DNA from: a virus
Taxonomy: Duplodnaviria; Caudoviricetes
Strand: one strand, 5' to 3'
Length of the DNA: 62,483 bases
IMG/VR virus record: IMGVR_UViG_3300036851_000016
Location: 1-62,483 of that record
Positions within the stretch are counted from its first letter, which is position 1. Each line of letters starts with the position of its first letter. Below, one piece after another: positions 40,766 to 62,483 of the stretch. The position numbers and the translations under genes are program-made. Below the pieces are notes generated by a model. That model was given only the letters and a program-made list of their open reading frames with translations. It was not told the DNA's origin and did not search any database.

Positions 40766-40767
40766 CA

Positions 40768-41484: not shown

Positions 41485-41530
41485 TTTCTGTTCCTATCAT
41501 AAAGATAGGAATGTCCAAAAGGATGGAAAC

Positions 41531-42028
41531 ATGAGCTACAACAGAGGACAGGGACAGTTCGGGCGTGGTAATATTTGGACTATGATTCGTCAGTTAACTG
41601 ATGCACAGGGTTCTATTAACCCTTCAATGCAATCAGGTGCTGGCGGATTACAAACTGCAAAAGCTACCTATGATTTCGCAGTTGATGGTGGTGCAGTTGG
41701 CACCATTACACTGAAAAATTCTCCAGTAATTCCTGCCGGTGCTATCATTTTAGGTGGCATCGAACATGGTATTACACTTCCCACTTCAGGTGGTGCTGCT
41801 ACTATTGCCATTGGATTTGGTTCTGGTGCTCAGTCTGCACTATTGAAAGCTGCTACTGCAATCGCATCGTATGTAGCAGGAGTGCCCAGAGAATTAATTC
41901 CAAAGTGGACTTCGGCTACCATCTTCAAAGTCACTACTGAAGGTAAAATAACTATTACTGTTGCTACTGCTGCCTTAACCGCAGGCAAATTTGATATTCA
42001 CATTGTTTATGTGATGGGCGGTGAATAG
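41531..42028 (+). CDS. Virion structural/spike-base-like protein
   Basis: YDFAVDGGA, IPAGA.I, ALTAGK pattern. Confidence 0.55.
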   Translation: MSYNRGQGQFGRGNIWTMIRQLTDAQGSINPSMQSGAGGLQTAKATYDFAVDGGAVGTITLKNSPVIPAGAIILGGIEHGITLPTSGGAATIAIGFGSGAQSALLKAATAIASYVAGVPRELIPKWTSATIFKVTTEGKITITVATAALTAGKFDIHIVYVMGGE

Positions 42029-42030
42029 TA

Positions 42031-43545: not shown

Positions 43546-43952
43546 GCCTAATAGTTCCAAATGCGTTGGAAGTTGAGATTCTCACTGAGAAACTCACTCC
43601 AGCGTTAACCTTAAAGCTATATGGAAATAATGTCACTCCTACTGGTGCCAGCACCGCTGCATCTTTTACTGAAATAGCAGGTGGTGGATACGCAAGTAAA
43701 CCACTCACATTTGCTAATTGGGGTATTGTAGCTGGTGACCCTTCAATAGCAACTTACAATGCCATGCAAGAATGGACTTTTACTGGTGTCATTAATGCTC
43801 CAGGAACTATCTATGGCTATTTTGTAACTAGAAATAGTGATGGAAAGTTAATGTGGGCTGAGCGTTTTCCAGCAGCTAATGTTCCATTTGCACCAATTGC
43901 AGGAAGTTTAATTAGAGTGCTTCCGAAATTCACAGCGCAGAGTCAATTCTAA
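43542..43952 (+). CDS. Tail fibre attachment-like protein
   Basis: LKLY.N..TP...FTE..GGGYA...IYGYFV...L.WAERF. Confidence 0.6.
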   Translation: MSLIVPNALEVEILTEKLTPALTLKLYGNNVTPTGASTAASFTEIAGGGYASKPLTFANWGIVAGDPSIATYNAMQEWTFTGVINAPGTIYGYFVTRNSDGKLMWAERFPAANVPFAPIAGSLIRVLPKFTAQSQF

Positions 43953-46822: not shown

Positions 46823-47105
46823 ATCAGGTGGAGTTGAATCAGAACATCATGTTGTAGGTGTCAGATTGAGAGTAACTGGTGCTGGAAATTTACAGCATAG
46901 GTTATCTGGACTTGATGACATTATACAGCAAGATTTGGTTCCTATGCCTATGACAGCTACTGCTCGTATTGAACCTATGCGTCTGTCTAATATACAGGGA
47001 CAGAGAATTCGATACGAATTGTATACGACTGAATTAGATGAAACATTCCTGATTCGTCGTATCATCGTTTACGCGAAGGCTGTGGCTGTTGAATATCCAA
47101 CATAA
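46815..47105 (+). CDS. B homolog of 541..849
   Basis: EHHVVGVRLRVTGAGNLQ shared. Confidence 0.75.
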   Translation: MAKSGGVESEHHVVGVRLRVTGAGNLQHRLSGLDDIIQQDLVPMPMTATARIEPMRLSNIQGQRIRYELYTTELDETFLIRRIIVYAKAVAVEYPT

Positions 47106-47479
47106 TGGCTATTATTCCACAGTTAGACCGTCTACAGGCTCAGCTACTTACATCTGGTTTAAGCCAGAAAAATAGTGCTTTATATCAGGTCATTGACCAA
47201 TTAATCAAAGCATTAAGACAGGGAATAAATGAAGTAGAAGCTCAAGTAATTGCTATTACTCCTGCGCCTAGTGGTGGTGGGGGTGGTGGAACTATTATCA
47301 CTAGTTCAATGCCTATGGGTGATATTAGTGATGGAAATGAGGATAGTGACTGGAATTGGGGTCCACCTGGATTAAAAGGTGATACAGGCGCGCAAGGATT
47401 ACAAGGACCACCGGGAATGGATGGCGAAGATTGTGAATGTGAGTCTATGCCATTCGTAGGAACAGTGTTGTATCCATAA
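47105..47479 (+). CDS. B collagen-repeat tail protein
   Basis: Homolog of 849..1223. Confidence 0.75.
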   Translation: MAIIPQLDRLQAQLLTSGLSQKNSALYQVIDQLIKALRQGINEVEAQVIAITPAPSGGGGGGTIITSSMPMGDISDGNEDSDWNWGPPGLKGDTGAQGLQGPPGMDGEDCECESMPFVGTVLYP

Positions 47480-47913
47480 TGGGACCATTAATTACTCCCT
47501 TATATGGTAACTGGACACCCGTTCTAACATTTGAGACTCCGGGTGATTTAAGTGTAACTTACACTGTTCAATTAGGTAGGTTCATAAAAATAGGAAAGTT
47601 AGTAATTCTAACTGGACAAATTTCAACTTCTGCATTTACTCATACTACTGCAAGTGGTGATGCACGTATCACTGGATTACCATTTACTTCAGCTAACGTA
47701 GCAAATCTTGTTCATACTGGAACATTTCTTTATGAAGGAATTACTAAAGCCGGTTTTATGGCATTTTATCCCGAAATTACGTCGAATGTGGCATATATAG
47801 AATTTCGAGCTGTAGGAACTGGAGTTTCACTCGGTGCTATTCAAGCAGGAGATTTACCATCGGGTGGTTCTGTAACCTTTAGATTCGAAATTGTATATAT
47901 GGCAGCATCTTAA
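47479..47913 (+). CDS. B fibre tip domain (divergent allele)
   Basis: WTP, QLG, GKLV, GLPF shared with 1220..1651. Confidence 0.65.
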   Translation: MGPLITPLYGNWTPVLTFETPGDLSVTYTVQLGRFIKIGKLVILTGQISTSAFTHTTASGDARITGLPFTSANVANLVHTGTFLYEGITKAGFMAFYPEITSNVAYIEFRAVGTGVSLGAIQAGDLPSGGSVTFRFEIVYMAAS

Positions 47914-47922
47914 GAGGATAAC

Positions 47923-48249
47923 ATGGCAAAAGTTCAAGTTAGAATGGCTGGTCCCGCACAAGTTTCTAACGCTGCTGCGACCAAATATACAGTTCCTGCT
48001 AATAGGAGAGGAATTGTAAGACATGTGCATGTGCAGAATCCCTCTGGTGCTGCTGTAACATTCACTATGTCTATTGGTGCTGATGCTGCTGGCACTCGTA
48101 TATTCGATGCCTTTAGCATTGGTGCAGGACAAGTTCTAGACCACTATTGTTATTATATTCTTGCTGCTGCTGAAATCATCCAAGCATTAGCAGGAACTAA
48201 TAACATTCTTACCCTCACTATCGATGGTGATGAGGAAGTGCTTGCGTAA
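47923..48249 (+). CDS. B small virion protein
   Basis: Nearly identical to 1660..1986. Confidence 0.75.
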   Translation: MAKVQVRMAGPAQVSNAAATKYTVPANRRGIVRHVHVQNPSGAAVTFTMSIGADAAGTRIFDAFSIGAGQVLDHYCYYILAAAEIIQALAGTNNILTLTIDGDEEVLA

Positions 48250-48599
48250 TGAAACTACTTCAAAAGCAGTTTGAATTTGGTTTATTGTTACCTCTACTCT
48301 TGGCGAAAGCAACAGAGTTGGGGTATCAATATACTATGGGTGAAATTTTACGCTCACAAGAAGAAGCTAATAGATTAGCTAAACTTGGTGTAGGGAGTAA
48401 AAATTCTGTCCATAGGCTCAAACTTGCTGTAGACCTAAATCTTTTTAGAGATGGTGTCTACCAAACTAGTTCCGAGGCTCATAGAGCATTAGGAACTTAT
48501 TGGGAAAGTTTGAGTGCAGGTAAAGATTTTACTACTCATTGGGGTGGACATTGGGGAGATGGTAATCATTATTCCATAGGTCATGGTGGAGTAAAATGA
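48249..48599 (+). CDS. Endolysin, peptidase M15-like
   Basis: RS.EEA, S.H.LKLAVD, WGG, DGNHYS motifs. Confidence 0.85.
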   Translation: MKLLQKQFEFGLLLPLLLAKATELGYQYTMGEILRSQEEANRLAKLGVGSKNSVHRLKLAVDLNLFRDGVYQTSSEAHRALGTYWESLSAGKDFTTHWGGHWGDGNHYSIGHGGVK

Positions 48600-48970
48600 A
48601 GTCTCGTCCCTTTACTACTCTTGATTATTGGAAAGTAAAAGAACTACATAATAAGCATTATCCCGAATTTGAGTTTCCTCGATTCGATGAAATGCTTAAT
48701 GCCTATGTTATTGAAGATGAAGAAGGCATTATAATGGCAGGTGCAATAGAAAATGTGGCTGAGGCTGTATTAGTCACAAATAAGGACCGCAGTAGGGTTA
48801 CTATTGGCCGCGCACTTGTAGAGGCCCAGTCAATCTCGTTGTTCACTTGTAAGTCGTTTCGCATACATGACCTTTATGCATTCGTCAATAATGATGAATA
48901 TGCGAAACATCTTATAAAACATGGGTTCCGAGAGCATGGCTTAACTACATTAAGCATGAAGGTGCCATAA
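48596..48970 (+). CDS. B GNAT-like protein
   Basis: Homolog of 2458..2844. Confidence 0.6.
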   Translation: MKSRPFTTLDYWKVKELHNKHYPEFEFPRFDEMLNAYVIEDEEGIIMAGAIENVAEAVLVTNKDRSRVTIGRALVEAQSISLFTCKSFRIHDLYAFVNNDEYAKHLIKHGFREHGLTTLSMKVP

Positions 48971-50307
48971 TGGGAAAGAAAAAGCAAGAAGAAAATCCTG
49001 CATCACAGGTAATACAACAGGCTCAAACTGCGTATCAGAATACGCAACAGCCTACCGCTAATGAGGCTGCATTTGGGCCTATTAGTGACCAGTTCATGAA
49101 TAACTATAATACTGCTGTAGGTCAGAATACAGCAGATTATGGTAATATCATGGGCGCTTACCAACAGTTCCGCGAGGGACTTGGTGGACCTTCTAAATTT
49201 TCATACAATAAGGTTTCCGCTGAACGTCCCAAGGAATTAGGCAAAGCATATGGATATCTCGATGAAGCAATGCCGGGATATCGTGATTTTGCTGCTACAG
49301 GTGGATATTCTCCCACAGATATTCAAGAACTACGTGCGCGTGGTGTAGCTCCAATACGTGCTGCGTATGGAAACACCATGATGGAACTTGACAGAGCAAG
49401 GTCATTAGGTGGTGGGGGTGGCGCACCTAATTATATTGCTGCTGCAAGTCGCGCACAGAGAGATTTACCCGGTCAAATGGCTGATGCTATGACTACGGTT
49501 AACGCCGGTCTAGCAGATTCTATTCGACAGGGTAAACAATTTGGCCTATCAGGAATCAGTAATACTGGTTCTACAATGGGTGGACTTGCGAGTAACGAAG
49601 CAGGTCGTATGTTACAAGCTGCACTAGCTAATCAGGGTGCAGATTTGCAAACTCAACAAATGGGAGAACAATCCCTACAGAATCTCAGACAGATGCAATT
49701 AGCTGGTCTGGGTGGACAAGCATCACTGTATGGGACTACTCCTGGAATGTCTTCAATGTTTGGTAATCAAGCATTAAATGCGTGGCAACAGCGCGCAGGA
49801 ATGGAACAAGCAAGAAATCAATTTGGTATGGGATTACTTGACGCACAACTTCGCGGTTATGGTAGCCAAGAACAGAATAAGGGCACACCGTGGTGGCAGA
49901 CTGCATTAAGTGTTGCAGGAACAGCAGCCCCATATGTTGCTATGGCTATGTCTGATAGAAATATGAAACAGAATATTGAACCTGTAAATCCAAACTATCA
50001 GTTTGGTCAGGTTAACTTAAATCAACCTAGCACGGATAATCTTTTCACTTATTCCAGCAGGTTGATGAAAGATAACATCAAACCAGTTGGTAGAGGTTCT
50101 ACTATTAAAGGTAGCCCCTTCACTAAGAAACTGAATGAACTTCAGTTATATACTTGGAAATATAAGGGTGACGATACCAAGCATTTCGGACCAATGGCGC
50201 AGGATTTCAAAAAGAAGTTTGGCATAGGTGATGGTAAGACTTTACACCTTGCCGACGTTATGGGAGTGGTTCTTGCGTCTCAGAAAGAACAGGTGAAGAA
50301 TGCCTGA
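48970..50307 (+). CDS. B ejection protein with S74-like domain
   Basis: Homolog of 2837..4114. Confidence 0.75.
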   Translation: MGKKKQEENPASQVIQQAQTAYQNTQQPTANEAAFGPISDQFMNNYNTAVGQNTADYGNIMGAYQQFREGLGGPSKFSYNKVSAERPKELGKAYGYLDEAMPGYRDFAATGGYSPTDIQELRARGVAPIRAAYGNTMMELDRARSLGGGGGAPNYIAAASRAQRDLPGQMADAMTTVNAGLADSIRQGKQFGLSGISNTGSTMGGLASNEAGRMLQAALANQGADLQTQQMGEQSLQNLRQMQLAGLGGQASLYGTTPGMSSMFGNQALNAWQQRAGMEQARNQFGMGLLDAQLRGYGSQEQNKGTPWWQTALSVAGTAAPYVAMAMSDRNMKQNIEPVNPNYQFGQVNLNQPSTDNLFTYSSRLMKDNIKPVGRGSTIKGSPFTKKLNELQLYTWKYKGDDTKHFGPMAQDFKKKFGIGDGKTLHLADVMGVVLASQKEQVKNA

Positions 50308-51667
50308 TTTAATGCAGTTTCTGAGATTGCAGAATTTATTCGGTGCTCCGCAAATTACAGCACCGGGTATAGCTGGTGGTGATTTTATGCCACCACAAGA
50401 CTTTTCGCAGGCATTTTCACCACAGCCTGACCCATATGGAAATATATCATTTGGGCCAGCTACACAACAGGCTATGCCCGCGCAAACTCCTATGTTACCT
50501 ACACAAGCTCAGCCTACAGGTGGGTTTGATGTAGGTGCCAGAATGCGAGAACTCTATCAGCCAGAAACTATGGCTCAAGATAGATTTAATACTATGCTCG
50601 GTGAATATCCCGAAGCTACTAAACCCGGATGGCTTAAAGTAATTGGAGCCACACTTGCTGATTTAGCAAGACCCGGAACTGGTATGCAAGTTGTCGAAGG
50701 TGGTAGAACAAGGAAAGTTGCAGATTGGAAGAATAAGATTGGTGCTGCTCAGGATGCGGCAAGTTTAGAGCGACAGACTAATGTTAATGAACGTCAACTA
50801 GCAGGAACTATTGCAACACAAGAAAGACTATCAGCAGCAGACCAAGCGCGTGCAGAAAAGGATGCTGCTAGAACTAAGATAATGCAGGACCGTGCTGAGG
50901 TATATAGACTCAAGTCTCTGAGAGGAAACTTTAAGTTTAATTTCAGCGGTCCTAAAGTTATCATTACGGACCCTGCTACTGGTAAAGTTGAACAGACAGA
51001 CATTGATACAGGTTCATTGTCTGATGCTGATAAGATGGCACTATCTCAGGATAATGCTCTTGAATTAGAGGGCGTTAGACAAGAAGGTCGTGAAAGTCTC
51101 GAAGGTATTAGACAGGGTGGTAGGGAATCCTTAGCTGAAACTAGGGGTTGGAAAGAAGCAATAGTTCCTGACCCTGATAATCCCGGTAGACAGATAGCTA
51201 TTCTGTATAATCAAATAACAGGCGAATCCAAACCGCTTCAATTTGGTGGTAAGTCTGTTACTGGTATGAATAAGCCCGGCACACAAACTGGTGGAAGGTC
51301 GGGTGAATTACCCACACAGACTAAAGTTAGACAGGCTACGGCTGCGAGGGAATTTGTAGCCAAAAATCCTGCTCTTTCTAAATATGTTCAATTTACCCCT
51401 GGTAATGAATTCTCAATTACGCCTCCTGCTACTGGTAGATTTTCTACTGGGCCAAGTCAGGATGATTATAACAAAATAGTGAAAGCAATATATGGAGATG
51501 ACCTTCCTATCTCAGCTACTAGGACTGGTGATACAGGAACTGGGACACCAACACTTACCACTAAATTTAATCCTAATAATCCTAACCACAAGCGTCAGAG
51601 AAGTCCTAGCACTGGTAAGATTCGTGAGTCTTACGATGGTGGTAAAACATGGCAAATCGTCAACTAA
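50300..51667 (+). CDS. B ejection protein 2
   Basis: Homolog of 4114..5421. Confidence 0.65.
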   Translation: MPDLMQFLRLQNLFGAPQITAPGIAGGDFMPPQDFSQAFSPQPDPYGNISFGPATQQAMPAQTPMLPTQAQPTGGFDVGARMRELYQPETMAQDRFNTMLGEYPEATKPGWLKVIGATLADLARPGTGMQVVEGGRTRKVADWKNKIGAAQDAASLERQTNVNERQLAGTIATQERLSAADQARAEKDAARTKIMQDRAEVYRLKSLRGNFKFNFSGPKVIITDPATGKVEQTDIDTGSLSDADKMALSQDNALELEGVRQEGRESLEGIRQGGRESLAETRGWKEAIVPDPDNPGRQIAILYNQITGESKPLQFGGKSVTGMNKPGTQTGGRSGELPTQTKVRQATAAREFVAKNPALSKYVQFTPGNEFSITPPATGRFSTGPSQDDYNKIVKAIYGDDLPISATRTGDTGTGTPTLTTKFNPNNPNHKRQRSPSTGKIRESYDGGKTWQIVN

Positions 51668-53790
51668 CCGAACCTGACGATTGGGAAGATGTTAGTGATT
51701 GGGAAGACGATACACGTCCTACACTAACTGTTCCTTCTCAGACACCTGCACCTACACAACAGCCTTCTATGTTAGGGGGAATATGGGATGCTATATCTCA
51801 ACCCCTAACTACGTTGCCATCTGAATTCGCTGATACCATTGCGAATTACATCGATAGACCTTCATTAGAACGTAGTCCGCTACGTGCTCAAATTGAAGGT
51901 TTTGGCGCTGGTGCTGTTGAAGGATTAGGGGATGTAATTTCAGGATTAACATCTCCTATAGACCTAGCTATTACTGCTTTAACAGGTGGAAGTAGTATGG
52001 CTATGAAAGCTGGTCTACCAGCTATAGCTAAAGGTCTATCTATAGCTGGTAAAGGTGCTGGTGGATTAGTTGCTGCGCATGGTGCGGGTAATGTATTCTC
52101 TCCAGAATCTACACTTGCAGAAAGAGGATTTGGATTAGCAGAAATGGCGGGTGGTGTAGGGGGTATGACTCATACTCCAAAAATATCAGCCATTGGTGAT
52201 TCTGTTAAAACTGGTAAGACTCCGCCTATTACTGCTGAATCATTTGGACCGGGATTCTTCAAAGGTGGTGGTCCTGAGAAAGCAGCCGAAATAGCTAAGG
52301 GTGTAACTAAAAAGGTTGAAACTCCTGCACCTAAAGTAGAAGGTGATATTATCGATAAATATGCCAAATTGAGAGCAGTTCCAGTAGGAACTAACTATAC
52401 AGTCAGTGCCTCAAGTATGACGCGTAGGCAGTTGACTGATGCTATTAAACTAGGATTTGATTATCAAGAACTGGCAGGTGATGGAAGCAAGATAATAATG
52501 AAAAAGGTTAGGGAATCACCCCAACCTAAAATGCCAGAACCACCGGAAGTGGAAACTAACGCACTATTGGATGCTGCTAATATACCACGCACCATTATGG
52601 CGTCAATGGATATGTCCGCTCCACTTAGACAGGGGATTGGACTTGTCCATCGTAAAGAATTCTGGAATGCCCTCCCTGATATGTTTAGAGCATGGGGTTC
52701 TGAGGATGCTTATAAATCTATTCAGAAGGGTATTACCGATGACCCAATTTTCAAGAAAAGGGTAACTGCTGATGGTCAGGTAAAACCATCATTTGCAGAG
52801 GATGTGGGTCTAAAACTTACTGACCTTAATAATTTTACTAACAGGGAAGAAACTATGCTATCAACTATAGCGGAGAAGATTCCTGGTGTGCGTAGGTCTA
52901 ATAGAGCGTATACAGCTTTCCTGAATAAGTTGAGAGCAGATACGTTCCGACAGATGACGCAGGACTATGGTGTCGTATCTGGCACCAATATGCGTAATAA
53001 TGTCAAGCTTGGTAAAGAGATTGCTGAGTTTGTAAATAACGCTACAGGTCGGGGTGATTTAGGTAAGTTAGAACCATCTGCTAAGGCTCTATCTACTGTA
53101 TTGTTTTCACCCAGACTTATAGCTTCGCGCTTAGGTATGATGGCTAAGGGAACACAAGCACTATTTAGTCCCGAAGTCTACACAATATCCCAACCATCAG
53201 TGCGTAGAGAATATCTGAAATCTCTAGCTGCTATTGCTGGCACAGCAGGAACCTTTACACAGTTAATGAGACTGGGTGGAGCTACTGTAGAAACAGACCT
53301 AGCATCTAGCGACTTTGGTAAACCTAAGATTGGGAACACCAGAATTGACCCCTATGGTGGTTTCCAACAATATGTTGTATTAATGCAGAGGCTGATGCCT
53401 CAATTAGATTTAAGTTCTATGGGATTAGGTGAGATTGGTGGGAAGATGAAATCTACCACTACAGGTCGTGAATATGACCTTGCTAATCCTCAATTTGGAC
53501 AATCGGATAAAGCTGATGTTTTGAACAGATTTATCCGTTCCAAGACTAATCCCATAATCAATTTCGCGTGGGGAATGATGTCTGCTCAGAAGGAAATATC
53601 AGGGCAGAAAATGGATGTAACAAATCCAAATCCAATGGAGAATGCTATTGCTCAGAGATTCATACCCATGCTAATTCAAGATGTGTATGAACTTGTGAAT
53701 GATGAAGTTACACCACCACAAGCAAAAGCTCTAGCTACGTTCCTCTCCACCTTTGGTATGGGTTCACAAACTTATGGGGGTAGACAATAA
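51649..53790 (+). CDS. B ejection protein 3
   Basis: Homolog of 5423..7393 (SNRAYTA, APRLIASR/SPRLIASR, DFGK). Confidence 0.65.
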   Translation: MANRQLTEPDDWEDVSDWEDDTRPTLTVPSQTPAPTQQPSMLGGIWDAISQPLTTLPSEFADTIANYIDRPSLERSPLRAQIEGFGAGAVEGLGDVISGLTSPIDLAITALTGGSSMAMKAGLPAIAKGLSIAGKGAGGLVAAHGAGNVFSPESTLAERGFGLAEMAGGVGGMTHTPKISAIGDSVKTGKTPPITAESFGPGFFKGGGPEKAAEIAKGVTKKVETPAPKVEGDIIDKYAKLRAVPVGTNYTVSASSMTRRQLTDAIKLGFDYQELAGDGSKIIMKKVRESPQPKMPEPPEVETNALLDAANIPRTIMASMDMSAPLRQGIGLVHRKEFWNALPDMFRAWGSEDAYKSIQKGITDDPIFKKRVTADGQVKPSFAEDVGLKLTDLNNFTNREETMLSTIAEKIPGVRRSNRAYTAFLNKLRADTFRQMTQDYGVVSGTNMRNNVKLGKEIAEFVNNATGRGDLGKLEPSAKALSTVLFSPRLIASRLGMMAKGTQALFSPEVYTISQPSVRREYLKSLAAIAGTAGTFTQLMRLGGATVETDLASSDFGKPKIGNTRIDPYGGFQQYVVLMQRLMPQLDLSSMGLGEIGGKMKSTTTGREYDLANPQFGQSDKADVLNRFIRSKTNPIINFAWGMMSAQKEISGQKMDVTNPNPMENAIAQRFIPMLIQDVYELVNDEVTPPQAKALATFLSTFGMGSQTYGGRQ

Positions 53791-53990
53791 TGCCGCAAAT
53801 TGCTTGGAGAATCATCATCGTCGTAATCGTCGCTGTGTTTCTCACCCTACTAGTTCCACCAATATTGGGACTATTGGGAATTACTCTTGCGGGTAATGCA
53901 TATCAAATCATCAAGATTTGTCTTGCATTAATCGCAGTATTTTACATTATTTGGGGTGGTCCTGTGGCATTCCCCCCACTTCGTAGTTAG
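53790..53990 (+). CDS. B small membrane protein
   Basis: Near-identical to 9037..9237. Confidence 0.7.
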   Translation: MPQIAWRIIIVVIVAVFLTLLVPPILGLLGITLAGNAYQIIKICLALIAVFYIIWGGPVAFPPLRS

Positions 53991-54402
53991 GGAAACCTTC
54001 CCAAGTTCCCTCTCTCATCTGACGCTGTAATTTTTCTTTTATGGCGTCAGATTTACTCCTTCTATCCCGCCTATCTGCCATCCACAAAGCTGTTATTACA
54101 GCAATGTCTTTTTCTGTATCAGCAATTGATTCATTTCTCGGAGTCTTTTGTCCACTTTCCAGATTCGCGAGTCTGTATATTTTCTCAGCGAGTCTGCCCA
54201 CGAAACCAGCATCTTCTGGAGAGTGACTAAACATTGTAGCCATCTGACCTGCAAAGTGATAATTACCACTCGGATTCTTATCGGACGCATAATCGTGAGA
54301 CTTAGCATCATGCGTGTCAGCCATTTCTTCCAGTAAGGAATAGAAGGTGGGGGAACCGTGGCGAGATTTTCGTTCAGGAATATCCATCCTATACCCTCGC
54401 AT
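53947..54402 (-). CDS. B DUF1599/Nmad1-like protein
   Basis: Homolog of 9379..9921. Confidence 0.65.
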   Translation of the reverse strand: MRGYRMDIPERKSRHGSPTFYSLLEEMADTHDAKSHDYASDKNPSGNYHFAGQMATMFSHSPEDAGFVGRLAEKIYRLANLESGQKTPRNESIADTEKDIAVITALWMADRRDRRSKSDAIKEKLQRQMREGTWEGFPNYEVGGMPQDHPK

Positions 54403-54484
54403 CTATCGCAGGTTATTTTTGGATGAAAGACGGATAACTGCTTATATCCGTCTCCACCACACTTGATACACTTGTAAGAGTGTG

Positions 54485-54865
54485 TCATCTTCTTTTCCTA
54501 AAGAAATCAGGAGTTCTCTGATTCTTTGAGATTCCAATCGGACCAAAGTAAATTTCGCAATCTACATCATGTAGATGCATATCTCTTACTTCAGCCTTGA
54601 ACATTTCAGGGCTAGTAGTTTTGATTCTAAATACGTGACGCGATAATCCAGCGTCACCTTCTACAGCACCTACCATAGAAGTTAGAATCCATGCAGTCCC
54701 GATGTAGTATCTCTCTACATCGTCAGAGTCTAAGTAATCTTTCGAGAACATCATTGGGTGTATACCCCGTATATTTAGGTGCCTTAGGTAAGGCGATGAC
54801 ATTGGCAAGTTGCCAGTATTTGTTAGGAATATGGTAACTAATATCCCATCTTTCAGGTGGCTCAC
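54485..54865 (-). CDS. B conserved hypothetical protein (true start probably downstream)
   Basis: Homolog of 10091..10327. Confidence 0.65.
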   Translation of the reverse strand: MSHLKDGILVTIFLTNTGNLPMSSPYLRHLNIRGIHPMMFSKDYLDSDDVERYYIGTAWILTSMVGAVEGDAGLSRHVFRIKTTSPEMFKAEVRDMHLHDVDCEIYFGPIGISKNQRTPDFFRKRR

Positions 54866-55244
54866 CTTCCACGAAAGAGGGTTTAGTATAGGTCATTCCC
54901 AGTAAAAACCAACCAGGATAATCTGACCCATCATCATGTAATCTTGATTTCCAACACACTACCTGACACCGCATGGGTGTTATGTAGTTATCGTAAATCT
55001 TAACGAGTGCGAGGTAGAGTCTGATGCGATGTTCATACAGTTCATCCATTGTGTGATGACCGTCTGATACAGAATCAGCTTCTACCTCTAATACTTCTGG
55101 TGTTTCGTTTTCTATTTCATTCGCTTGTAATAGCCGAGCATTCTTGAGTAAGTATCTACTCATTGAATGGCGCTCTTTCAGGAAATCCATATTCAATAGA
55201 TTTTTGGTCAAATACCTCAGCGAGTATTCGCGAGGCATCAACAT
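54723..55244 (-). CDS. WDGH-like phage domain protein
   Basis: SDGHHTMDELYEHR, WKSRLHDDG, GWF, ISYH, DVLERL; absent in A. Confidence 0.65.
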   Translation of the reverse strand: MLMPREYSLRYLTKNLLNMDFLKERHSMSRYLLKNARLLQANEIENETPEVLEVEADSVSDGHHTMDELYEHRIRLYLALVKIYDNYITPMRCQVVCWKSRLHDDGSDYPGWFLLGMTYTKPSFVEGEPPERWDISYHIPNKYWQLANVIALPKAPKYTGYTPNDVLERLLRL

Positions 55245-55536
55245 CTATTTCAGCTAGTATGATTAGTCCATAGATAATAGAATCAGCTATCTCTATAGCT
55301 AACTTCTGTTTCAATTCAGAAAGATTGTTCTTAGATAATCCGGCTTCTTTATTAGGTAAGCCTTGATTAAGTCTGCGAATCTTTTTAGCTACATTAGCAG
55401 CTTCGCCAGATTCACCACACATTGCACCCGCCCATTCAAGTAGTGTCCAATTAGTTTGACCATTATTGTGCCAACGAATAGCACGTATAGCGTTAATCTC
55501 CTGAAATTTGCTAATGTCCATTAGTCTACCTTCCAA
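55156..55536 (-). CDS. MazG-like pyrophosphohydrolase (different subfamily from A)
   Basis: GESGEAANVAKK, EIADSIIY. Confidence 0.75.
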   Translation of the reverse strand: MEGRLMDISKFQEINAIRAIRWHNNGQTNWTLLEWAGAMCGESGEAANVAKKIRRLNQGLPNKEAGLSKNNLSELKQKLAIEIADSIIYGLIILAEIDVDASRILAEVFDQKSIEYGFPERAPFNE

Positions 55537-55802
55537 GGATTGAAATCATTACCCGGTTTTGTGGGGTCGCCCATCTTATAGTCAGCAGGTCGTATACCAT
55601 CACAGGGAGGACTTTTGCATATCCTTCCTACACATAACTTCTGACGACCAAAATTGACTATCCCACATTTACATTTCCACGGAGGAACATTACCATATAT
55701 TTGACTTCGACGATATTCTTCCCAAGTGTGAATTTTTTCAGGATTCTTCGATTCCTCTTGGGGGTCTATAGTCATGTCGTCCGGTGGTAAGATAATTGGC
55801 AT
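55521..55802 (-). CDS. B zinc-ribbon protein
   Basis: WKCKCG..N.....C; positional homolog of 11422..11688. Confidence 0.55.
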   Translation of the reverse strand: MPIILPPDDMTIDPQEESKNPEKIHTWEEYRRSQIYGNVPPWKCKCGIVNFGRQKLCVGRICKSPPCDGIRPADYKMGDPTKPGNDFNPWKVD

Positions 55803-55936
55803 AACGCTCCAATGCGATTAGCATCATCCTCTGTTTATCTTGTTTGTTCCACTCCACCCAACGGTCTTTATATTCAGCATTCCACATTGGATAGGGGCAA
55901 TGTTCTATATCCCCTATTGTCCAATAGTCATAAGGG

Positions 55937-56182
55937 TCAAACGGCTTGATTCGGGAAATCCGTTCTTTTGACATTGGCAGCGCGTGGACCCTTAGGAGAC
56001 TTAACAATGTCGAATTCAAGTTCGATGAATTCTCCCTTCTTTCCACGCACTTTCTCGAAATCGGATTCCAAGTCTTCCCAATGCCCATTGAAATCTGAGC
56101 GATGGAAGAATATTTCAGAACCATCGGCTTTAATAAAACCGAAGTTCTTCTGTGGAATTATGTTCTTGAGTTGTCCCTTCAT
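55937..56182 (-). CDS. Second cold-shock domain protein (B only)
   Basis: KNFGFI, IFFHRS, KGPRAANV. Confidence 0.85.
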   Translation of the reverse strand: MKGQLKNIIPQKNFGFIKADGSEIFFHRSDFNGHWEDLESDFEKVRGKKGEFIELEFDIVKSPKGPRAANVKRTDFPNQAV

Positions 56183-56415
56183 TATTCGTTCCTCGCAATC
56201 GCTGCATTTGCCCAGAAGATAGCTTCTTCCAGTTTGGTAATAGCAAGAGATTGCTCTCTTGAAGGTGGGGTATTCTTCACGATGTTGTAGGCTAATACCC
56301 TAGCCTCATCGCGCAGGAAAACATATCTTTCCTGTTGGTCATTCTTGGGAGCGTGATATTGAAAGTTGTTTTCAATCTGTCTTCCCATCTTGGTTTCGAT
56401 TTCGTAATTGTGCAT
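56182..56415 (-). CDS. B Acb2/Tad1-like protein
   Basis: SREQSLAITKLEEAIFWANAAIARN. Confidence 0.6.
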   Translation of the reverse strand: MHNYEIETKMGRQIENNFQYHAPKNDQQERYVFLRDEARVLAYNIVKNTPPSREQSLAITKLEEAIFWANAAIARNE

Positions 56416-56418
56416 CTC

Positions 56419-57711
56419 TCACTCCTTTACAATTTTCCCCATTTTACCTGTCATGAATATCTTCATTTCGTTGGCTTGTTGTTCCGGCATTGTGTAGAGA
56501 ATCTGATTCCCTACGCTATTAGTTTTAATCATTCCTGATGCATCAAAACCTGCCATCATATCATCGAATTCCGTAGCATTTTCATAATGCTGCCACATCT
56601 TCTTCATCAACACTGTTCGTGTCACTGAATGTGTGTCTCTATTAAGGAGTTCCATGATAATCAAAGTCTTAAGCATTGCAGATTGACTAATACCCTGCTT
56701 GCCAAGGGTAGTCTTACGGACGTTTCCTAGTAGTTTCTCTGATTGAACTATGGCTTCATGCATAGCCTCAGGACTTATCACTAGTTTTGGATTACGTGCG
56801 AGGGATAGCAGCATTGCTACCTTTAACACACTATCACCAAATCTATTCAGTGTGCCAGTCTCATCCTTCTCAGATGTTTTGATTAATTCTTTGAAGTTGT
56901 CATACCAGTCATCGTATATGATTCCAACTTCATTGAAATATAGTTCGCGTGAACCACGCTTTGATTTCTTAATCTTACGATACTTAAACTCATCGGACTT
57001 ATCACCTTCCATCGGTGCGAATGGTCCGGAGAGTTTAGCTATTTCTCTTAAGTAGTTTGCCGAATTAGCGTAATTGGGAGGATTCTCCAATCTATATATG
57101 AGAGAATTTGAATTCTGTCCCTCTTTCTCATATATGATAAAAGTGCGCGCGAAGTATCCACCCTGAATTGCGCTTCGGGTAAAGAAATCCTCACTCATAG
57201 CTTCATTCGTCGCTGTGAGCATGGTTATCGTAGGATTCTTAAGTTCAAAAGTCTCCATCTTTAATAGAGACTTCCACTCTCCTACGTTATATTGTCTATC
57301 ATACAAGTCAGTGAGGATTTTGGTAGCGACCTTATCCTCGACAATTGACGATGATAGTTCTGAGCTACAAATGAACGCTACAGATTTAGTCTGAACCTTT
57401 CCGCCTGGAACTGTATATGCTGTGCCTAAATCTTTCAATATACCCTGAATTGATGACCTACCGTCAATGATACGTGTGTTATTGACAGGTCTAACCAATT
57501 GCTTTGCCATACTGATAGGTGGACCTTTCTTTAGTCCAGACTCAGCATGTAACATCACATAGATGTTAGGGTATAAATTGTAGATTTGTCTATTCAGCCA
57601 TACTTGGTCTTTGATAACTGCCGACATTGCAGCTATCGCGCTCCAATACCAGAATGATTCAGGACTCTCTAGTTCATTGTGTTGCTCAACTATTTCCTGA
57701 AGCCAATTCAT
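56419..57711 (-). CDS. B DUF3987-like ATPase
   Basis: Homolog of 11906..13210. Confidence 0.75.
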   Translation of the reverse strand: MNWLQEIVEQHNELESPESFWYWSAIAAMSAVIKDQVWLNRQIYNLYPNIYVMLHAESGLKKGPPISMAKQLVRPVNNTRIIDGRSSIQGILKDLGTAYTVPGGKVQTKSVAFICSSELSSSIVEDKVATKILTDLYDRQYNVGEWKSLLKMETFELKNPTITMLTATNEAMSEDFFTRSAIQGGYFARTFIIYEKEGQNSNSLIYRLENPPNYANSANYLREIAKLSGPFAPMEGDKSDEFKYRKIKKSKRGSRELYFNEVGIIYDDWYDNFKELIKTSEKDETGTLNRFGDSVLKVAMLLSLARNPKLVISPEAMHEAIVQSEKLLGNVRKTTLGKQGISQSAMLKTLIIMELLNRDTHSVTRTVLMKKMWQHYENATEFDDMMAGFDASGMIKTNSVGNQILYTMPEQQANEMKIFMTGKMGKIVKE

Positions 57712-57874
57712 CTGGCATCACACTGTTAACGACCGTTATGGCCGGAATTAGACAATCGGGACACTCTGGTCTCATATCGTCTGTGACCCAATGTTGTTTA
57801 CAACGTAGACACTTTACTTCACGAGATTTCATGTTGTGGTCTTTTTCCTTGCTAGAAGGGGATATCGTCATCAA
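57686..57874 (-). CDS. B small zinc-ribbon protein
   Basis: CLRC and CPDC. Confidence 0.5.
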   Translation of the reverse strand: MMTISPSSKEKDHNMKSREVKCLRCKQHWVTDDMRPECPDCLIPAITVVNSVMPDELASGNS

Positions 57875-58076
57875 TCACCTGCAATTCTGTCTTAATGTCA
57901 TTCACAATACGCTTGTGAACTCCAGCTAAGACGATTAAAAATTGACCCAATAACCCGGTTAGGTTACTGTCCATTACAGTATCAATAGATTTGCAGTCCC
58001 ACATAGTTTCACCTTTAGAGTTTACTACTTTGGACTCAGTTCTGCAAACTAGTGTAAGCTCGAATTGTGCCTTCAT
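57852..58076 (-). CDS. B DDIPF-tail protein
   Basis: Homolog of 13363..13566. Confidence 0.7.
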   Translation of the reverse strand: MKAQFELTLVCRTESKVVNSKGETMWDCKSIDTVMDSNLTGLLGQFLIVLAGVHKRIVNDIKTELQVIDDDIPF

Positions 58077-60742
58077 TCGACCTCGAATCTTTTGAGAGTC
58101 TTGTCATGATTGTAAATGATATCAGTCAGTTTCGTGTCAGGTGGTATGACTGACGCGAGGAATGATTCAGTTACAGTCTTAGGTGGCATGTCTAGTAATT
58201 CCACAGGTTCACCGATAATCGGTATATCCTTAAACTTCTTGAAATCCCTATAGTTCTTACCGACTTCGACTTCACATGGAATCTTTAGTTTGTGTCTACG
58301 TAGTGAACATTGACTGAAATCAATTGGTCGTTCCATCTCCTTTTTAATAATGGGAATCCATTCCGCTTTCTTACTCACCGGAATTGAGAATAAGAGAGCG
58401 TCATGTGATTCCATAACAATCTTGATGTGTGGTATCCTTTCGCGTATACGTATAGCAGCAGCCTTAGTGTTATCAGACACAGTTCTCTGAGGTATATAGG
58501 AGAATGCTTGTCTGTTAAGTTCTTCTCCCCAACGCTCAAAGAATGTTCTCTTACCACCAGCAGGTGCATCTACTCCATATGGCAATCCTGCAACTAGCTG
58601 TCTATTCTTACGTAGGCATTCGACAATACCAGCTTGGAACACTTGCTGTATTCTAGGCTGCTTACTGTGGAATATCTGTAAAGCTCGTTCTGCAATTTGT
58701 TCGTCAATTGCGATGGGAATCTTATATTTACGCGCTTGGGTATTGACTTCGATAGCAGCACGTCGTTTACCAGCGCCAAGATGCCCCGCGTGCCTGAGAG
58801 TTTTACCGCAGAATCTAATAGGATGCTCGTATCCAAGTTTCTTTTTGTCATAGTCAAATAGTTCTGCATTCTTACCGAAGAACCATGTTGCTGTGAATGC
58901 GTGGTAATCAATTTCATCGACTAGTCTTAATGCTTCATCGTCATCAGCTAATAGCCACACAACTCTAGCTTCTGCCTGTGAACTATCAGCCTGAACGAAT
59001 TCTTCTTCCTCATCAATCCGTTGTATTATTTCATCAATAGTCTCGAAATGGAAAGTATCTGGCACATACATACCACGTATGTCTGCACCGATATCTCCAT
59101 GTTTCGTCATTGTCTGAAATGCCGTCCCAAGAACCTTGTCTTTTTTCTTACCGTTTTCGTCAATAACTTCGACAATTGGTCTAATGGGTGGGTCTTGTTG
59201 TCCTGTGGAGCTTCTACCTGTATCCAAACAAGGGAAATAGGTAGTCCGCATACGTCCGTCATAATCTGGGAGAGCCATAAGATAAGTCGAGATAGACTTC
59301 CTAACTCGACGGTCTTCCAGTATAAGCTCACATATTCTTCTGTGGGACTCAGGACGTTTCTTCCATACGGTAGCCGAGTTAAGCAAAGCAGTGATATCTT
59401 CCTCTCCCGTAGAATCTTTACGAGGGAATTGAAGGTTTTCCCAGAGAAGAAGTTGAATTTGCTTTGGTGAATTAACATTAATCTCTGCTCCTGTTAGTTT
59501 GAATAGTTCATACCTACACTTTTCATCCCATTCAATGTATTTCTTTAATAGTCTATCCCTTTCCTCATGGTCTACTCTAAAGCCCTGTTGTTCAATAGAC
59601 CAATACAAGTCAGGGAACTTCATTAGGAAATTCTCAAAGAATTGACGCTGACCTAACTCATCCAGGTCTGCATTCATATTCTCATCTACTTCAAATGTTA
59701 CGCAAGCATCTCGCGCACATCCCAGTAGAAGGTCTTCGATTTTTCCTTTATACATGCCCTCATCTTTATAGAATGGTTCTTCTGTAAAGAGTGAGGTATT
59801 GAACGCGAGTCCCTTAGGTAACTCAGGATTAATCGCGTGAGCCTTGAGCATTACATCCGATACAAGCTTTCGGATAACAAACCCAAGTCTCTTAATCTTG
59901 TCTCTATCGTAGTTGAAGTTCTGTCCTACGATTTCATTTTCCCATAGCATTTCTGCTAGGATTAACCACATTTGAACTAAGTCACTAGATGGTATGTTAC
60001 AGATACCATCAGTATTCCATAGTGGCACACACATTCCGTGGTGCTTATTAAAAGCCAGCCCAATACAAACAGGGATACAGGTTCCATTAGCTTCAATGTC
60101 CACAGACATTCTAAGCTTACCTTTGTATCGCTGTCTGAATTCGGCTAACTGATGGGAATTTCTAGCAACTTCGAGGCTACGTGATGGGAGAATTAATTCT
60201 GGAAATCGACTTTGCGCGAGGGCACGCTTAAAGTCGAATGCCATTATTTGTCTGTTCCAGTATCCTTTGAATTCAACGTCTGTCGCGTGCCATGACAAGT
60301 GAGCTGGATTATAACTTGGGACGAATTTAACTCCCATGCCATGCATGATACTTCCACGGTAGTTGCCAATTTTAGTTTTTCCAGAGAGTGCCCATAAAGG
60401 GGTTCCGCCAACAGCCAAAATACAGTTGGGTTTGATTGCATTAATTTCTTCCTGTAGTTCTGCTAACTGTTGTTCTATATCAATGCCAGCATTCTTGGCA
60501 CGGACGGCGAATGGTATTCTTTTCTTTCCAGTATTGGGTGGAACCTCATATTTAGAAACAGTAGTAAGCCAGCAATTCTCTTTACGAATGCCAGCATCCA
60601 TTAGCAATTGGTTTAATTCCTTACTGTCTGTGAATGCTTTACCAGTAGAGGAATCTTTATAGGTAGGGCAGTCCCCTAGAACCATTAACTTAGCTCCTAG
60701 GGGACCGTGACCTGCTACGTATTTCTTTTCAATTTCACTCAT
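58073..60742 (-). CDS. polA: B family A DNA polymerase with degenerate UDG-like domain
   Basis: Homolog of 13563..16232. Confidence 0.92.
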   Translation of the reverse strand: MSEIEKKYVAGHGPLGAKLMVLGDCPTYKDSSTGKAFTDSKELNQLLMDAGIRKENCWLTTVSKYEVPPNTGKKRIPFAVRAKNAGIDIEQQLAELQEEINAIKPNCILAVGGTPLWALSGKTKIGNYRGSIMHGMGVKFVPSYNPAHLSWHATDVEFKGYWNRQIMAFDFKRALAQSRFPELILPSRSLEVARNSHQLAEFRQRYKGKLRMSVDIEANGTCIPVCIGLAFNKHHGMCVPLWNTDGICNIPSSDLVQMWLILAEMLWENEIVGQNFNYDRDKIKRLGFVIRKLVSDVMLKAHAINPELPKGLAFNTSLFTEEPFYKDEGMYKGKIEDLLLGCARDACVTFEVDENMNADLDELGQRQFFENFLMKFPDLYWSIEQQGFRVDHEERDRLLKKYIEWDEKCRYELFKLTGAEINVNSPKQIQLLLWENLQFPRKDSTGEEDITALLNSATVWKKRPESHRRICELILEDRRVRKSISTYLMALPDYDGRMRTTYFPCLDTGRSSTGQQDPPIRPIVEVIDENGKKKDKVLGTAFQTMTKHGDIGADIRGMYVPDTFHFETIDEIIQRIDEEEEFVQADSSQAEARVVWLLADDDEALRLVDEIDYHAFTATWFFGKNAELFDYDKKKLGYEHPIRFCGKTLRHAGHLGAGKRRAAIEVNTQARKYKIPIAIDEQIAERALQIFHSKQPRIQQVFQAGIVECLRKNRQLVAGLPYGVDAPAGGKRTFFERWGEELNRQAFSYIPQRTVSDNTKAAAIRIRERIPHIKIVMESHDALLFSIPVSKKAEWIPIIKKEMERPIDFSQCSLRRHKLKIPCEVEVGKNYRDFKKFKDIPIIGEPVELLDMPPKTVTESFLASVIPPDTKLTDIIYNHDKTLKRFEVE

Positions 60743-60957
60743 TATTGACCCGGATACCTTGTTCCTGTTCTGAAATATCTATCATCTGCTTTACATTCTT
60801 CACAGATAATAGTCCTGTGTATTACTCCCTTTATAGGAGGAATAGTTTCCCAGCTTCTATGACACTTAGGACAGGAATTGAATGTTTGTCCTTCGTGAAG
60901 TGGGCTAGTAATATCATCAGGTTTATTAGGAGGTTTTGTCCGCATATATAGATTCAA
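60742..60957 (-). CDS. B zinc-ribbon protein
   Basis: Homolog of 16420..16593. Confidence 0.65.
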   Translation of the reverse strand: MNLYMRTKPPNKPDDITSPLHEGQTFNSCPKCHRSWETIPPIKGVIHRTIICEECKADDRYFRTGTRYPGQ

Positions 60958-61378
60958 GTTTCTTTTCTTGAGTCTCTGTTAGCGGCCACTTATTGTTGAC
61001 ACGAACATTCATGTCTTCAATAAACTTAGTCTCCCAATCATTTAAGTCATCTGAAGCTTCTTCGAGAATGGCATCAATCCATCCTCTTAAAACTTCATAG
61101 GGTTGAGGTTGCCACATTTTCGCCATTTTACCGTTCAACCTTTTCAATGCATCCTGTCTAGTCGGAAGGGTGGAGAGAGTAGGGTCAGTGTGTAATAGTT
61201 CGGCTAGTCTGAGGTTTTCAGAAACTAGACCTATACTGCATTGAAAGTATTCGGCAGTTTTGGTTATGGTCCAATTCTTAGACCGCGTAGTCATAGCAAG
61301 GTGATATATCTCTATTACTATCACCTTACCAAACCACGTCGTCTCAGAATTATATCTGTCTAGGAACGATACGCCCAT
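60926..61378 (-). CDS. B HTH protein fused to the homolog of 16229..16423
   Basis: Two domains that are separate genes in A. Confidence 0.7.
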   Translation of the reverse strand: MGVSFLDRYNSETTWFGKVIVIEIYHLAMTTRSKNWTITKTAEYFQCSIGLVSENLRLAELLHTDPTLSTLPTRQDALKRLNGKMAKMWQPQPYEVLRGWIDAILEEASDDLNDWETKFIEDMNVRVNNKWPLTETQEKKLESIYADKTS

Positions 61379-61523
61379 TTATTCCATCTGCCCCACTACT
61401 GATTGGATTTGGTCTTTGATGTATTTCACTTGAGTAAGTATAAGTGTTTTACCTATACCTCTCAGTTGTTTGGCTTCGTATTCTATCTTCTTGATAGAAT
61501 CCCACATCTTGCACCATTCATCT

Positions 61524-61778
61524 CTAGTTAGAGACATCTATTTTCTCCTTACTCAATATGCGATAGAAGGTATCATCACGCTCAAATAGACTTGCTATTT
61601 TGGGCGCAATTCTAGCCATTTCTAGCGCAATGATTTGTGATTCAGTTAGTCCACGATGGACTTTAGTTGGAAGGAATATAGTCTTAGAACCCGGCACCCA
61701 GAGTAATCGGTCAATATCTAACTCATGACCGACTACCCCAAGTGCGAGGATTCGTAGAAAAGCTCTACGATTCACCAT
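61524..61778 (-). CDS. Twin-arginine-like peptide fused to an MCP N-terminal-like segment
   Basis: NRRAFLR; ESQIIALEMARIAPKIASLFERDDTFY resembles the MCP start. Confidence 0.7.
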   Translation of the reverse strand: MVNRRAFLRILALGVVGHELDIDRLLWVPGSKTIFLPTKVHRGLTESQIIALEMARIAPKIASLFERDDTFYRILSKEKIDVSN

Positions 61779-62073
61779 CTTTCAGCACCCGAATCTTGAT
61801 TGCACGCCAGCCTTTGTCTGCAACTTCAACTGGTGTGAATTCCACCTTCATTCCGTTTTTTAGTTCCTGAAACTTGAGAGTATCTTGTTTCAGTGAAGTC
61901 CAGTGGAAAAAGATTCGAGTGAATTTGATATCCTTGGAACTAATAAAGCCCCATCCATCCTCGGATACCTTAATAATCTTACCTTTCACCCGTTTTTCGT
62001 CAGGCTTAACAGGTGTAGTGTCAGGTTCAGTGGGAGCGTCCCCCTGAAAAAACTTCTGAAACGCATTTGCCAT
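61765..62073 (-). CDS. B cold-shock domain protein
   Basis: Homolog of 16941..17279; AGGAG RBS. Confidence 0.85.
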   Translation of the reverse strand: MANAFQKFFQGDAPTEPDTTPVKPDEKRVKGKIIKVSEDGWGFISSKDIKFTRIFFHWTSLKQDTLKFQELKNGMKVEFTPVEVADKGWRAIKIRVLKDGES

Positions 62074-62163
62074 TACTTCACTCCTGTTTAGAAAGTAGTT
62101 GATGTTATTGGAGCATCTGCCATATGCTCTTTTAATGGGCAGTCATTTCAAAGTAGCATCCCA

Positions 62164-62358
62164 TTACTGGGACTGTTTCTTACCCCACTTCTTCGCCATA
62201 GTCTCAGCGTATTTCTTGTGCTGAGCCTTTGTCCATTTCGCCTTCCGGAATTTCTTCTTCGGCTTTACTTGTACCTTCGGTTTAACCTTGGTGGACATAC
62301 GCTCCAACAAAGTTTCCAGTCCAAGATTAATCAGAAACAACTCGTGTTTACGATTCAT
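62164..62358 (-). CDS. Small very basic protein
   Basis: AAAGGA RBS; K-rich, KWT..QH.K....M.K.W. Confidence 0.6.
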   Translation of the reverse strand: MNRKHELFLINLGLETLLERMSTKVKPKVQVKPKKKFRKAKWTKAQHKKYAETMAKKWGKKQSQ

Positions 62359-62483
62359 TTTTTTTCCTTTCGATGTATTTGGGACGCCTCATCCCAAAGT
62401 AGTCAATAATAACTTTCTCTAACACCCACGAAAGAGACTTGTTCTCAGAAGCTGCAATCTTACGCAGCCCTGCTTTTATTTCT

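Follow-up and report, generated by a model that had tools for sequence, protein, structure and literature searches.

An accessory phage gene that joins a twin-arginine module to a copied segment of the major capsid protein: a candidate early decoy

Capsid, terminase and portal proteins are ligands of bacterial innate immunity. Lit acts with the Gol peptide of the T4 major capsid protein (MCP), and the MCP sensors, Lit with its Gol peptide as well as CapRel, are switched on by their ligand. The sections of PMC13728456 drawn on here describe CapRel as sensing an MCP and mention an antitoxin mimic among anti-defence proteins, while those of PMC7677548 present T4 Spackle as a periplasmic protein that is made early and has a virion protein as its ligand. 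The gene analysed here, an 84-aa open reading frame (ORF84) in a stretch of DNA of 62,483 bases that is a whole viral record (the window), combines a Tat-like twin-arginine (RR) module with a copy of the N-terminal arm (N-arm) of the MCP from the same record. Its location and length, given in a preliminary description as 61524..61778 on the minus strand and 84 aa, were confirmed. The features concerned are as follows.

61524..61778, minus strand: ORF84, 84 aa, an accessory gene made of the RR module and the MCP N-arm copy
61668..61778, minus strand: N-terminal module of ORF84, aa 1-37, with R4 and R5, an uncharged stretch and then DIDRLLWVPGSKTIFLP
61527..61652, minus strand: MCP N-arm mimic of ORF84, aa 43-84, predicted to be helical (H46-66, H68-75)
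36159..37550: gene for a 463-aa protein, located between those for portal and MCP
37570..38832, plus strand: MCP, 420 aa, an identity that rests on phrog_14242 ('major head protein', E 6.7e-7)
37570..37740, plus strand: the MCP segment copied, residues 1-57, as matched by the ORF84-family profile

ORF84 begins with MVNRRAFLRILALGVVG. The ungapped match of 14 in 27 residues to the start of the MCP, reported in the preliminary description, was reproduced by a recount on both sequences; the end given there for ORF84 (...TFY) was wrong, and 12 more residues follow. With these included, BLASTP aligned ORF84 aa 43-84 to MCP aa 2-44 with 17 of 43 positions identical and one gap (E 2e-9). The proposed check against shuffled sequences was run: the Smith-Waterman score of 89 between ORF84 and the MCP was reached by none of 5000 ORF84 shuffles (28.3 +/- 4.2, maximum 53; z 14.4), and when the 72 window ORFs that have 100 aa or more were scored against ORF84, the MCP came first and the runner-up reached 39. 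Searched against the proteome of its own record, ORF84 matched the MCP at E 5.9e-8. Further, a profile of 44 ORF84 homologues matched MCP aa 1-57 (E 1.3e-13) and, in a search of the whole record, found nothing besides ORF84 and the MCP. These 44 homologues, collected from a large protein collection at E<=0.01, are 75-143 aa long and 54-100% identical; about half of them reach approximately 100 aa, their extra residues prolonging the MCP match. Because these longer homologues continue to match the MCP (to aa 57 in the family profile), ORF84 can be regarded as a short form. The match covers just MCP aa 1-44 for ORF84 and aa 1-57 for the family profile, well short of the MCP fold, and ORF84 is thus a copied MCP fragment and not itself an MCP. 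In an AF2 model (pLDDT 63), which served for secondary structure only, aa 41-70 formed a block with pLDDT 69-83, while aa 31-38 fell below 50, the conserved block there being predicted unstructured. The AF2 model of the MCP had a mean pLDDT of 48.9 and was confident only at about aa 135-222, and a complex prediction of the MCP with ORF84 scored 0.00, which says nothing either way.

The record holds two related, distinct genome copies (A, 1..28500, and B, 28700..62483) with 70-93% DNA identity over shared blocks, for example 13650-16012 and 58154-60523. Relatives measure about 44-48 kb, which makes it likely that the 62.5-kb record, labelled 'complete', does not represent a single genome and was assembled from two strains or in a concatemer-like way. 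ORF84 lies in B, and its reported absence from A was borne out both by the flanking blocks and by a family-profile search of the record. Specifically, the flanks 16822-16938 and 16992-17222 of A match 61250-61366 and 61792-62022 of B, so that B carries approximately 370 extra bases; these separate a cold-shock-domain gene from the conserved gene that follows and contain ORF84 together with a 52-aa ORF. In A, the cold-shock-like gene and the one after it are directly adjacent, and ORF84 and the 52-aa ORF are both missing. Repeats flanking this indel were not evident in the A/B comparison, where the alignment is poor. The neighbouring features are these.

61379..61537, minus strand: 52-aa ORF, within the extra bases of B, overlapping the end of ORF84 by 14 nt
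61765..62073, minus strand: cold-shock-domain gene (PF00313, E 3.7e-10), upstream of ORF84 and overlapping its start by 14 nt; present in both copies, with the A homologue at 16941..17327
58073..60742 and 13563..16232, minus strand: 889-aa ORF, one in each copy, located among replication-type genes and taken as DNA polymerase from its position and size

Homologues of the 52-aa ORF adjoin module genes at nine loci, and in one rhizosphere contig the stretch of this ORF (61393-61500) is swapped for 127 other letters while ORF84 is retained. A portal-like zinc-ribbon minigene was also considered in A (16420-16593; phmmer E 0.016) and was set aside, its B homologue being unconfirmed (BLASTP E 0.86). 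The strands and neighbours agree with the earlier placement of ORF84 on the strand opposite the structural genes and among replication-type genes. In the window's lineage, the gene has the DNA polymerase within 3 kb at 24 loci, a P-loop ATPase at 22 and the cold-shock-domain gene at 19; across distant lineages, neighbour clustering found no gene kept beside the module. From the strand opposite the structural genes and the replication-type neighbours, we infer early or middle expression of ORF84.

Whether a copied segment of this kind is retained by selection can be judged from its relatives. Median pairwise dN/dS was 0.20 for the first 37 codons, which make up the module, and 0.37 for the C-terminal part (C-part), and both halves are thus under purifying selection. 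The C-parts of the ORF84 family are about 40% identical where the corresponding MCP N-arms are 75% identical; even so, the copied helix retains the residues that are most conserved in the MCP N-arms of the lineage, for example LFERDD.FY, while the rest drifts. Such retention of conserved residues amid drift is the putative signature of a mimic that still fits the ligand of the arm. Co-evolution of the C-part with the MCP of its own genome was unconvincing within the window's lineage, as C-part similarity was 0.385 to the own MCP arm and 0.370 to foreign arms (permutation p 0.066). The gene is accessory: the module profile matched 21 of 21 positive records and none of 10 near-complete relatives, which have a completeness of 96-100% and share 71-77% MCP identity with the window. 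Among 185,579 species genomes, only four loci were found, all on MAG contigs, which argues for a family of free phage genomes rather than prophages. A tblastn search with ORF84 and the MCP against 50,697 GenBank phage records returned no match, and thus no cultured relative among them. ORF84 has no family in Pfam, PHROGs or NCBIfam; a single weak match in NCBIfam, NF041845, was dismissed at 17.5 bits against a cut-off of 35. The ORF84 stretch recurs in soil and rhizosphere metagenomes, where one contig bridges the gene with few differences, and a 199-nt contig from a soil RNA library spans 61665-61844, which is not a demonstration of transcription.

Beyond the capsid-like half, the module has a much wider distribution of its own. 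A scan of viral contigs gave 57 loci, in many of which the match was confined to residues 2-38, and the ORFs at these loci share a common 36-aa N-terminus followed by very different C-terminal parts. In an alignment of 43 modules, R3, R4, D20, W26, P28, G29, K31, F34 and P36 were invariant, and the identical copy of ORF84 among them (L005) has all of these residues. The order is constant: a twin arginine at residues 3-4, approximately 15 uncharged residues and an invariant W-x-P-G-x-K-x-x-F-x-P block, which in its 17-aa form after the uncharged stretch reads D-x-[DE]-x-L-L-W-V-P-G-x-K-x-I-F-L-P and stays constant in phages whose G+C content spans 34-68%. A search of 1.84 billion cluster representatives with the module profile gave 3188 matches at E<=1e-3 and 679 at E<=1e-10. 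Almost all of the 3188 module-headed clusters are small proteins (56-194 aa among the best 150 of the 3188). The module is far commoner than the capsid-like half, and the small phage proteins that share it form, as judged from the profile matches, a very large family. Pfam, PHROGs and NCBIfam contain no model for it, giving only weak matches to Tat signals, and the full-text literature, covered outside subscription journals and supplementary files, returned no description of such proteins.

The earlier characterization of the module as 'Tat-like' is supported at the level of the motif (R-R-x-F-L, with TIGR01409 matched in four of five distant members tested); ORF84 itself lies below every cut-off. 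Tat signals follow a (S/T)-R-R-x-F-L-K-like consensus near the N-terminus, and an invariant twin arginine at the extreme N-terminus, combined with x-F-L and an uncharged stretch, is defining for them. ORF84 has N-R-R-A-F-L-R at residues 3-9, and the RR pair is invariant in all 43 aligned sequences. Among the 144 motif-bearing proteins of the best 150 of the 3188, RR falls at residues 2-7 in 142; position +2 is F in 126 and position +3 is L in 134, often with K or R next. The stretch that runs from RR up to the first acidic position measures 15 aa in 120 of the 144 (mean Kyte-Doolittle 1.44), and in 126 the uncharged stretch carries no charge past its fourth residue; an A-x-A-like small/small pair at -3/-1 before the conserved acidic residue occurs in just 34. 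TIGR01409 (cut-off 16.7 bits) was matched by L033 (18.5), L049 (19.3), L055 (16.7) and L031 (17.1), with no match for L044; ORF84 matched neither TIGR01409 nor PF10518, and the PF10518 matches of relatives were weak, under the 22.7-bit cut-off. The sole PDB profile matches were weak (E 0.14 to 7.4) and fell on the N-termini of a 28-residue CueO chain, a thiosulfate reductase and a sulfide dehydrogenase, which we take to be Tat substrates, and the ESM Atlas look-alikes below 0.9, leads only, were proteins with Tat signals.

The module resembles the Tat signals of TIGR01409 and PF10518 in its N-terminal R-R-x-F-L and subsequent uncharged stretch and differs from them in that this stretch is short, that an A-x-A is usually lacking and that the invariant 17-aa block is absent from the Tat models. 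The usual Tat cargo is a cofactor-bearing enzyme, whereas the module carries a segment of 40-100 aa copied from a viral head protein, a candidate for export. On these motif-level features, the module probably engages the Tat machinery, and the invariant block, unlike an ordinary signal-peptide c-region, may have a partner of its own. The same block gives rise to a different and rather unlikely reading, in which the RR helix and W-x-P-G-x-K together would be a cytoplasmic linear motif that recruits a host machine, such as a chaperone or protease, and the protein would act as an adaptor bringing this machine to the binding partners of the MCP or to the MCP itself. A block that is invariant at 34-68% G+C is what would be expected for a universally conserved host partner, its predicted lack of structure (pLDDT <50, aa 31-38) suits a linear motif, and the position of ORF84 under the Tat cut-offs and the minority of A-x-A-like sites point the same way; against it stand the invariant twin arginine at the extreme N-terminus, the x-F-L, the fixed length of the uncharged stretch and the four of five distant members that pass TIGR01409.

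What the module carries could be traced by comparing each C-part with all ORFs of its own record in 20 phage records with a module gene. The own MCP was the only significant match in 13 of the 20. Specifically, the C-part matched the N-arm of the own MCP in ten records (G000-G009, E 5e-7 to 5e-16), MCP aa 226-247 in G010 (E 5.6e-6) and the mid region of an MCP of the P22-coat type in G012 and G018 (aa 291-344 and 244-306, E 1e-6 and 2e-10); the latter two MCPs were recognized by phrog_283 (E 1.7e-74 and 1.3e-48) and PF11651. The C-parts of the other seven had no significant match in their own record, and in three of these records the P22-type HMM found no MCP. We then considered 145 representatives among the best 150 of the 3188, the remaining five having been in the first alignment. 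With an HMM of the window-type MCP, 29 of them gave a match at E<=0.01, which fell on the N-arm in 19 and on positions 219-254 in 10; with a P22-type HMM, for which seven P22-type MCPs from the fetched records were used, 27 gave a match (12 at the N-terminus, 7 at 242-307 and 8 at 328-405). In an independent PHROG scan, 11 of the 145 were matched, 10 of them by 'head and packaging' families (8 major head protein, 1 large terminase in P0131 and 1 portal in P0189) and the eleventh by a family of unknown function. Altogether, the assignable C-parts, found in 58 of the 145, are all head proteins, namely 56 MCPs, 1 large terminase and 1 portal, while in 87 the C-part matched no head protein or other assignable source.

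Some C-parts are composite. P0104 and P0147 join two non-adjacent pieces in one protein, and in P0131, P0171 and P0095 the C-part opens with a Walker-A-like Y-G-G-x-A-G-G-G-K-[TS] piece, the terminase match of P0131 (phrog_979, E 7.7e-4) lying around this region. After the Walker-A-like piece, an MCP-like piece reading G-[IV]-P-[YW] can be seen by eye in both P0131 and P0171, and that of P0171 also matches the window-type MCP HMM at positions 225-247 (E 7.3e-5); the two would be chimeras of two different head proteins.

These data bear on another account of ORF84, a recombination relic or chance similarity without function. A gene that sits in an indel between two strains and has no family in any library could be read in this way, but none of the 5000 shuffles reaches the score, the 44 homologues show dN/dS <1, the same module recurs in 3188 clusters and MCP pieces have been captured repeatedly from two unrelated MCP types. 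Taken together, the comparative data make it appear practically excluded. Likewise, the preliminary description had named a one-off fusion as the outcome that would refute it, which does not fit a module that heads 3188 clusters and matches the own MCP in 13 of 20 records, and the undescribed system of twin-arginine-tagged virion-protein fragments that it had suggested is strongly supported as an architecture.

Module genes are accompanied in some genomes by further small genes of related design. A second class of minigene has an RR peptide and an uncharged stretch, lacks the W-x-P-G-x-K block and copies the MCP C-terminus or a mosaic of MCP pieces, and G010 has a mosaic without an RR leader.

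G011, 49796-50119 (also given as L164:9796-10119): RR minigene copying the MCP C-terminus, E 4.8e-10, 1.3 kb from the module gene
G017, L180:14582-14872: RR minigene, a mosaic of four MCP pieces, E 5.3e-6, approximately 7 kb from the module gene
G003, L197:3772-4206: RR minigene copying the MCP C-terminus, E 0.004, 0.2 kb from the module gene
G010, L157:15221-15544: 107-aa ORF without an RR leader, made of two own-MCP pieces, aa 62-72 and 362-391, E 9.4e-9

The 107-aa mosaic of G010 is a kind of mini-MCP; it adjoins a gene resembling the C-terminal half of the window's 150-aa protein and shares its part of the record with the two RR-start genes of G010. Some genomes have two module genes, adjacent in G011 (L164:11415-12041) and 39 kb apart in G007 (L151:574-864 and L152:19410-19679), where the second has a degenerate N-arm copy. 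The number of RR-tagged genes per genome ranges from one to three. The N-arm, the mid region and the C-terminus are thus three coat-protein zones from which copies arose again and again, and this holds for two MCP types, the window type and the P22-coat type, that have no detectable sequence similarity to each other.

An RR peptide also occurs on the large terminase of the window, as the preliminary description had noted; it is real, the frame reading MDRRDFLK... from the ATG at 30285.

30285..32075, plus strand: large terminase (phrog_979, E 2.8e-32)
30285..30389, plus strand: RR extension of the terminase, 35 aa, preceding the conserved core start MAFDKGFWKP (30390)

The frame begins with MDRRDFLKRFAAVPFALG..., and a stop lies 12 nt upstream of the ATG. 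A search for homologous proteins with terminase residues 1-40 gave no matches, and a scan of viral contigs was used instead: of 80 loci, 67 were usable, 13 lacking the core motif, and these yielded 37 distinct N-termini. Of the 37, 11 have the extension, in which M-x-T-R-R-E-L-L-x-R-F-A-A-[VI]-P-F precedes a variable linker, and the other 26 begin straight at the core; it is also found on 4 of 10 terminases of the fetched records, and its presence in these relatives argues that it is real and conserved in a sub-lineage. Given the conserved internal Met after the extension, two terminase isoforms are possible. Homology between the extension and the N-terminus of ORF84 lacked statistical support (Smith-Waterman 23 vs 18.1 +/- 3.7, with 557 of 5000 shuffles reaching the score); phmmer aligned terminase aa 3-26 with three module variants only at E 0.01-0.04, which is a lead.

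The terminase extension touches on a role as a non-essential helper in building the phage's own heads. In P22 and T7, HK97-fold coat proteins use their N-arms for contacts with the scaffold and with neighbouring subunits, and an RR tether at the membrane or Tat site, with the copied segment docking on the MCP or scaffold, could localize or time procapsid assembly or cap an interface, while the RR extension of the terminase would bring packaging to the same place. That all copied pieces come from head and packaging proteins, and that one sub-lineage conserves the RR extension on its large terminase (in 11 of 37 distinct N-termini), would suit such a helper. However, neither copy A nor any of the 10 near-complete relatives has the gene, which makes a core assembly role less likely; moreover, it lies away from the structural module on the other strand and evolves much faster than the MCP arm, and the terminase extension is absent from most of the lineage (26 of 37). 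We regard this role as doubtful.

A gene that is dispensable, varies in number, evolves fast and sits among small accessory genes fits conflict genes better than core assembly factors. Together with the mimic signature and the fact that all identifiable cargo comes from MCP, terminase or portal, these conflict-gene-like traits lead us to favour a competitor or bait: ORF84 would be an early, RR-routed bait, most likely a decoy for a host factor, a reading to which we give a probability of roughly 0.35. ORF84 would be made early in infection, and the RR module would bring it to the Tat translocase or the inner membrane, where it would be exported or docked. The copied helix would compete with the real MCP N-arm for binders of that arm, the likeliest target being a host factor that recognizes or attacks conserved head proteins, and ORF84 as a decoy would titrate or remove this factor before the late proteins appear. 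Family members that carry a terminase piece, a portal piece or more than one MCP piece would amount to polyvalent forms of this device. Against a decoy, a secretion signal is odd for a protein aimed at cytoplasmic sensors. In addition, the known MCP sensors are activated by their ligand, so a decoy would have to bind without activating or else remove the sensor.

Removal could take a specific form. Tentatively, the Tat signal and the pieces of the phage's own capsid, terminase and portal could serve to capture the binders of head proteins and to export them or pin them at the Tat translocase. This would amount to a 'hitch-hiker' removal of host sensors in soil phages before the real late proteins appear, in which an RR-extended terminase isoform might also take part, a possibility that we hold just as tentatively.

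The conflict might instead be with other phages. Exclusion genes typically have a secretion-type leader, a replication-type neighbourhood, a small size and a patchy distribution, and ORF84 has a leader of this type, replication-type neighbours, a small size and a patchy accessory distribution. In superinfection exclusion or phage competition, an early exported or docked protein would bind proteins of a related phage and block entry or assembly, the candidate targets being ejection proteins, which sit in the virion against the capsid interior or portal, or the head proteins of the competitor. T4 Spackle, as presented in the sections of PMC7677548 drawn on here, offers a precedent, this early periplasmic protein having a virion protein as its binding partner. 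Since the mimic retains the most conserved MCP residues (LFERDD.FY), it would recognize partners common to the whole lineage. Nevertheless, the Walker-A-like pieces of terminase (P0131) have no obvious role outside the cytoplasm, and a mimic that poisons assembly would strike the own MCP too, because it is equally similar to own and foreign MCPs. Exclusion is possible, if not probable, and a decoy for a host factor remains our preferred reading.

If this reading is correct, phages would routinely encode tagged copies of conserved segments of their own head proteins, which would represent a new principle of counter-defence or inter-phage competition and a pointer to the surfaces of capsid, terminase and portal that matter to other players. 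It would also mean that small phage proteins use the Tat route, an instance that was not found in the literature searched. Regardless of mechanism, the 36-aa module is a tag by which small phage genes without annotation can be recognized in their thousands, and the variable parts behind it provide a natural map of three recurrent HK97-fold coat zones (N-arm, mid region and C-terminus) that is bench-testable in P22-type phages.

Among known systems, pilus chaperones, which are essential and conserved, act by donor-strand complementation and offer a works-like analogy, in that an element of contact between subunits is provided in copy by another protein; there is no homology, and the ORF84 gene is accessory. 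In Lit/Gol and CapRel, the latter within the sections of PMC13728456 drawn on here, a defined part of a capsid protein is recognized by a host protein, as would be the case for a decoy, but the trigger there is the full, late MCP, whereas ORF84 is a separate gene that has the segment only, with a secretion-type leader and replication-type neighbours. T4 Spackle resembles ORF84 as a small protein with a signal-type leader, and also in early timing, which for ORF84 is suggested by its neighbours; no sequence relation was found between the two (ORF84 has no PHROG or Pfam match), and Spackle is not described as a copy of a phage structural protein in those sections of PMC7677548. Mimic-type anti-defence proteins, such as DNA and antitoxin mimics, are likewise small accessory phage proteins that imitate a ligand. 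They imitate host or nucleic-acid ligands, whereas what the ORF84 family copies, behind a Tat-like leader, is head proteins of the phage itself. By analogy, early periplasmic exclusion proteins such as T4 Spackle and mimic-type anti-defence proteins come closest to ORF84 in logic.
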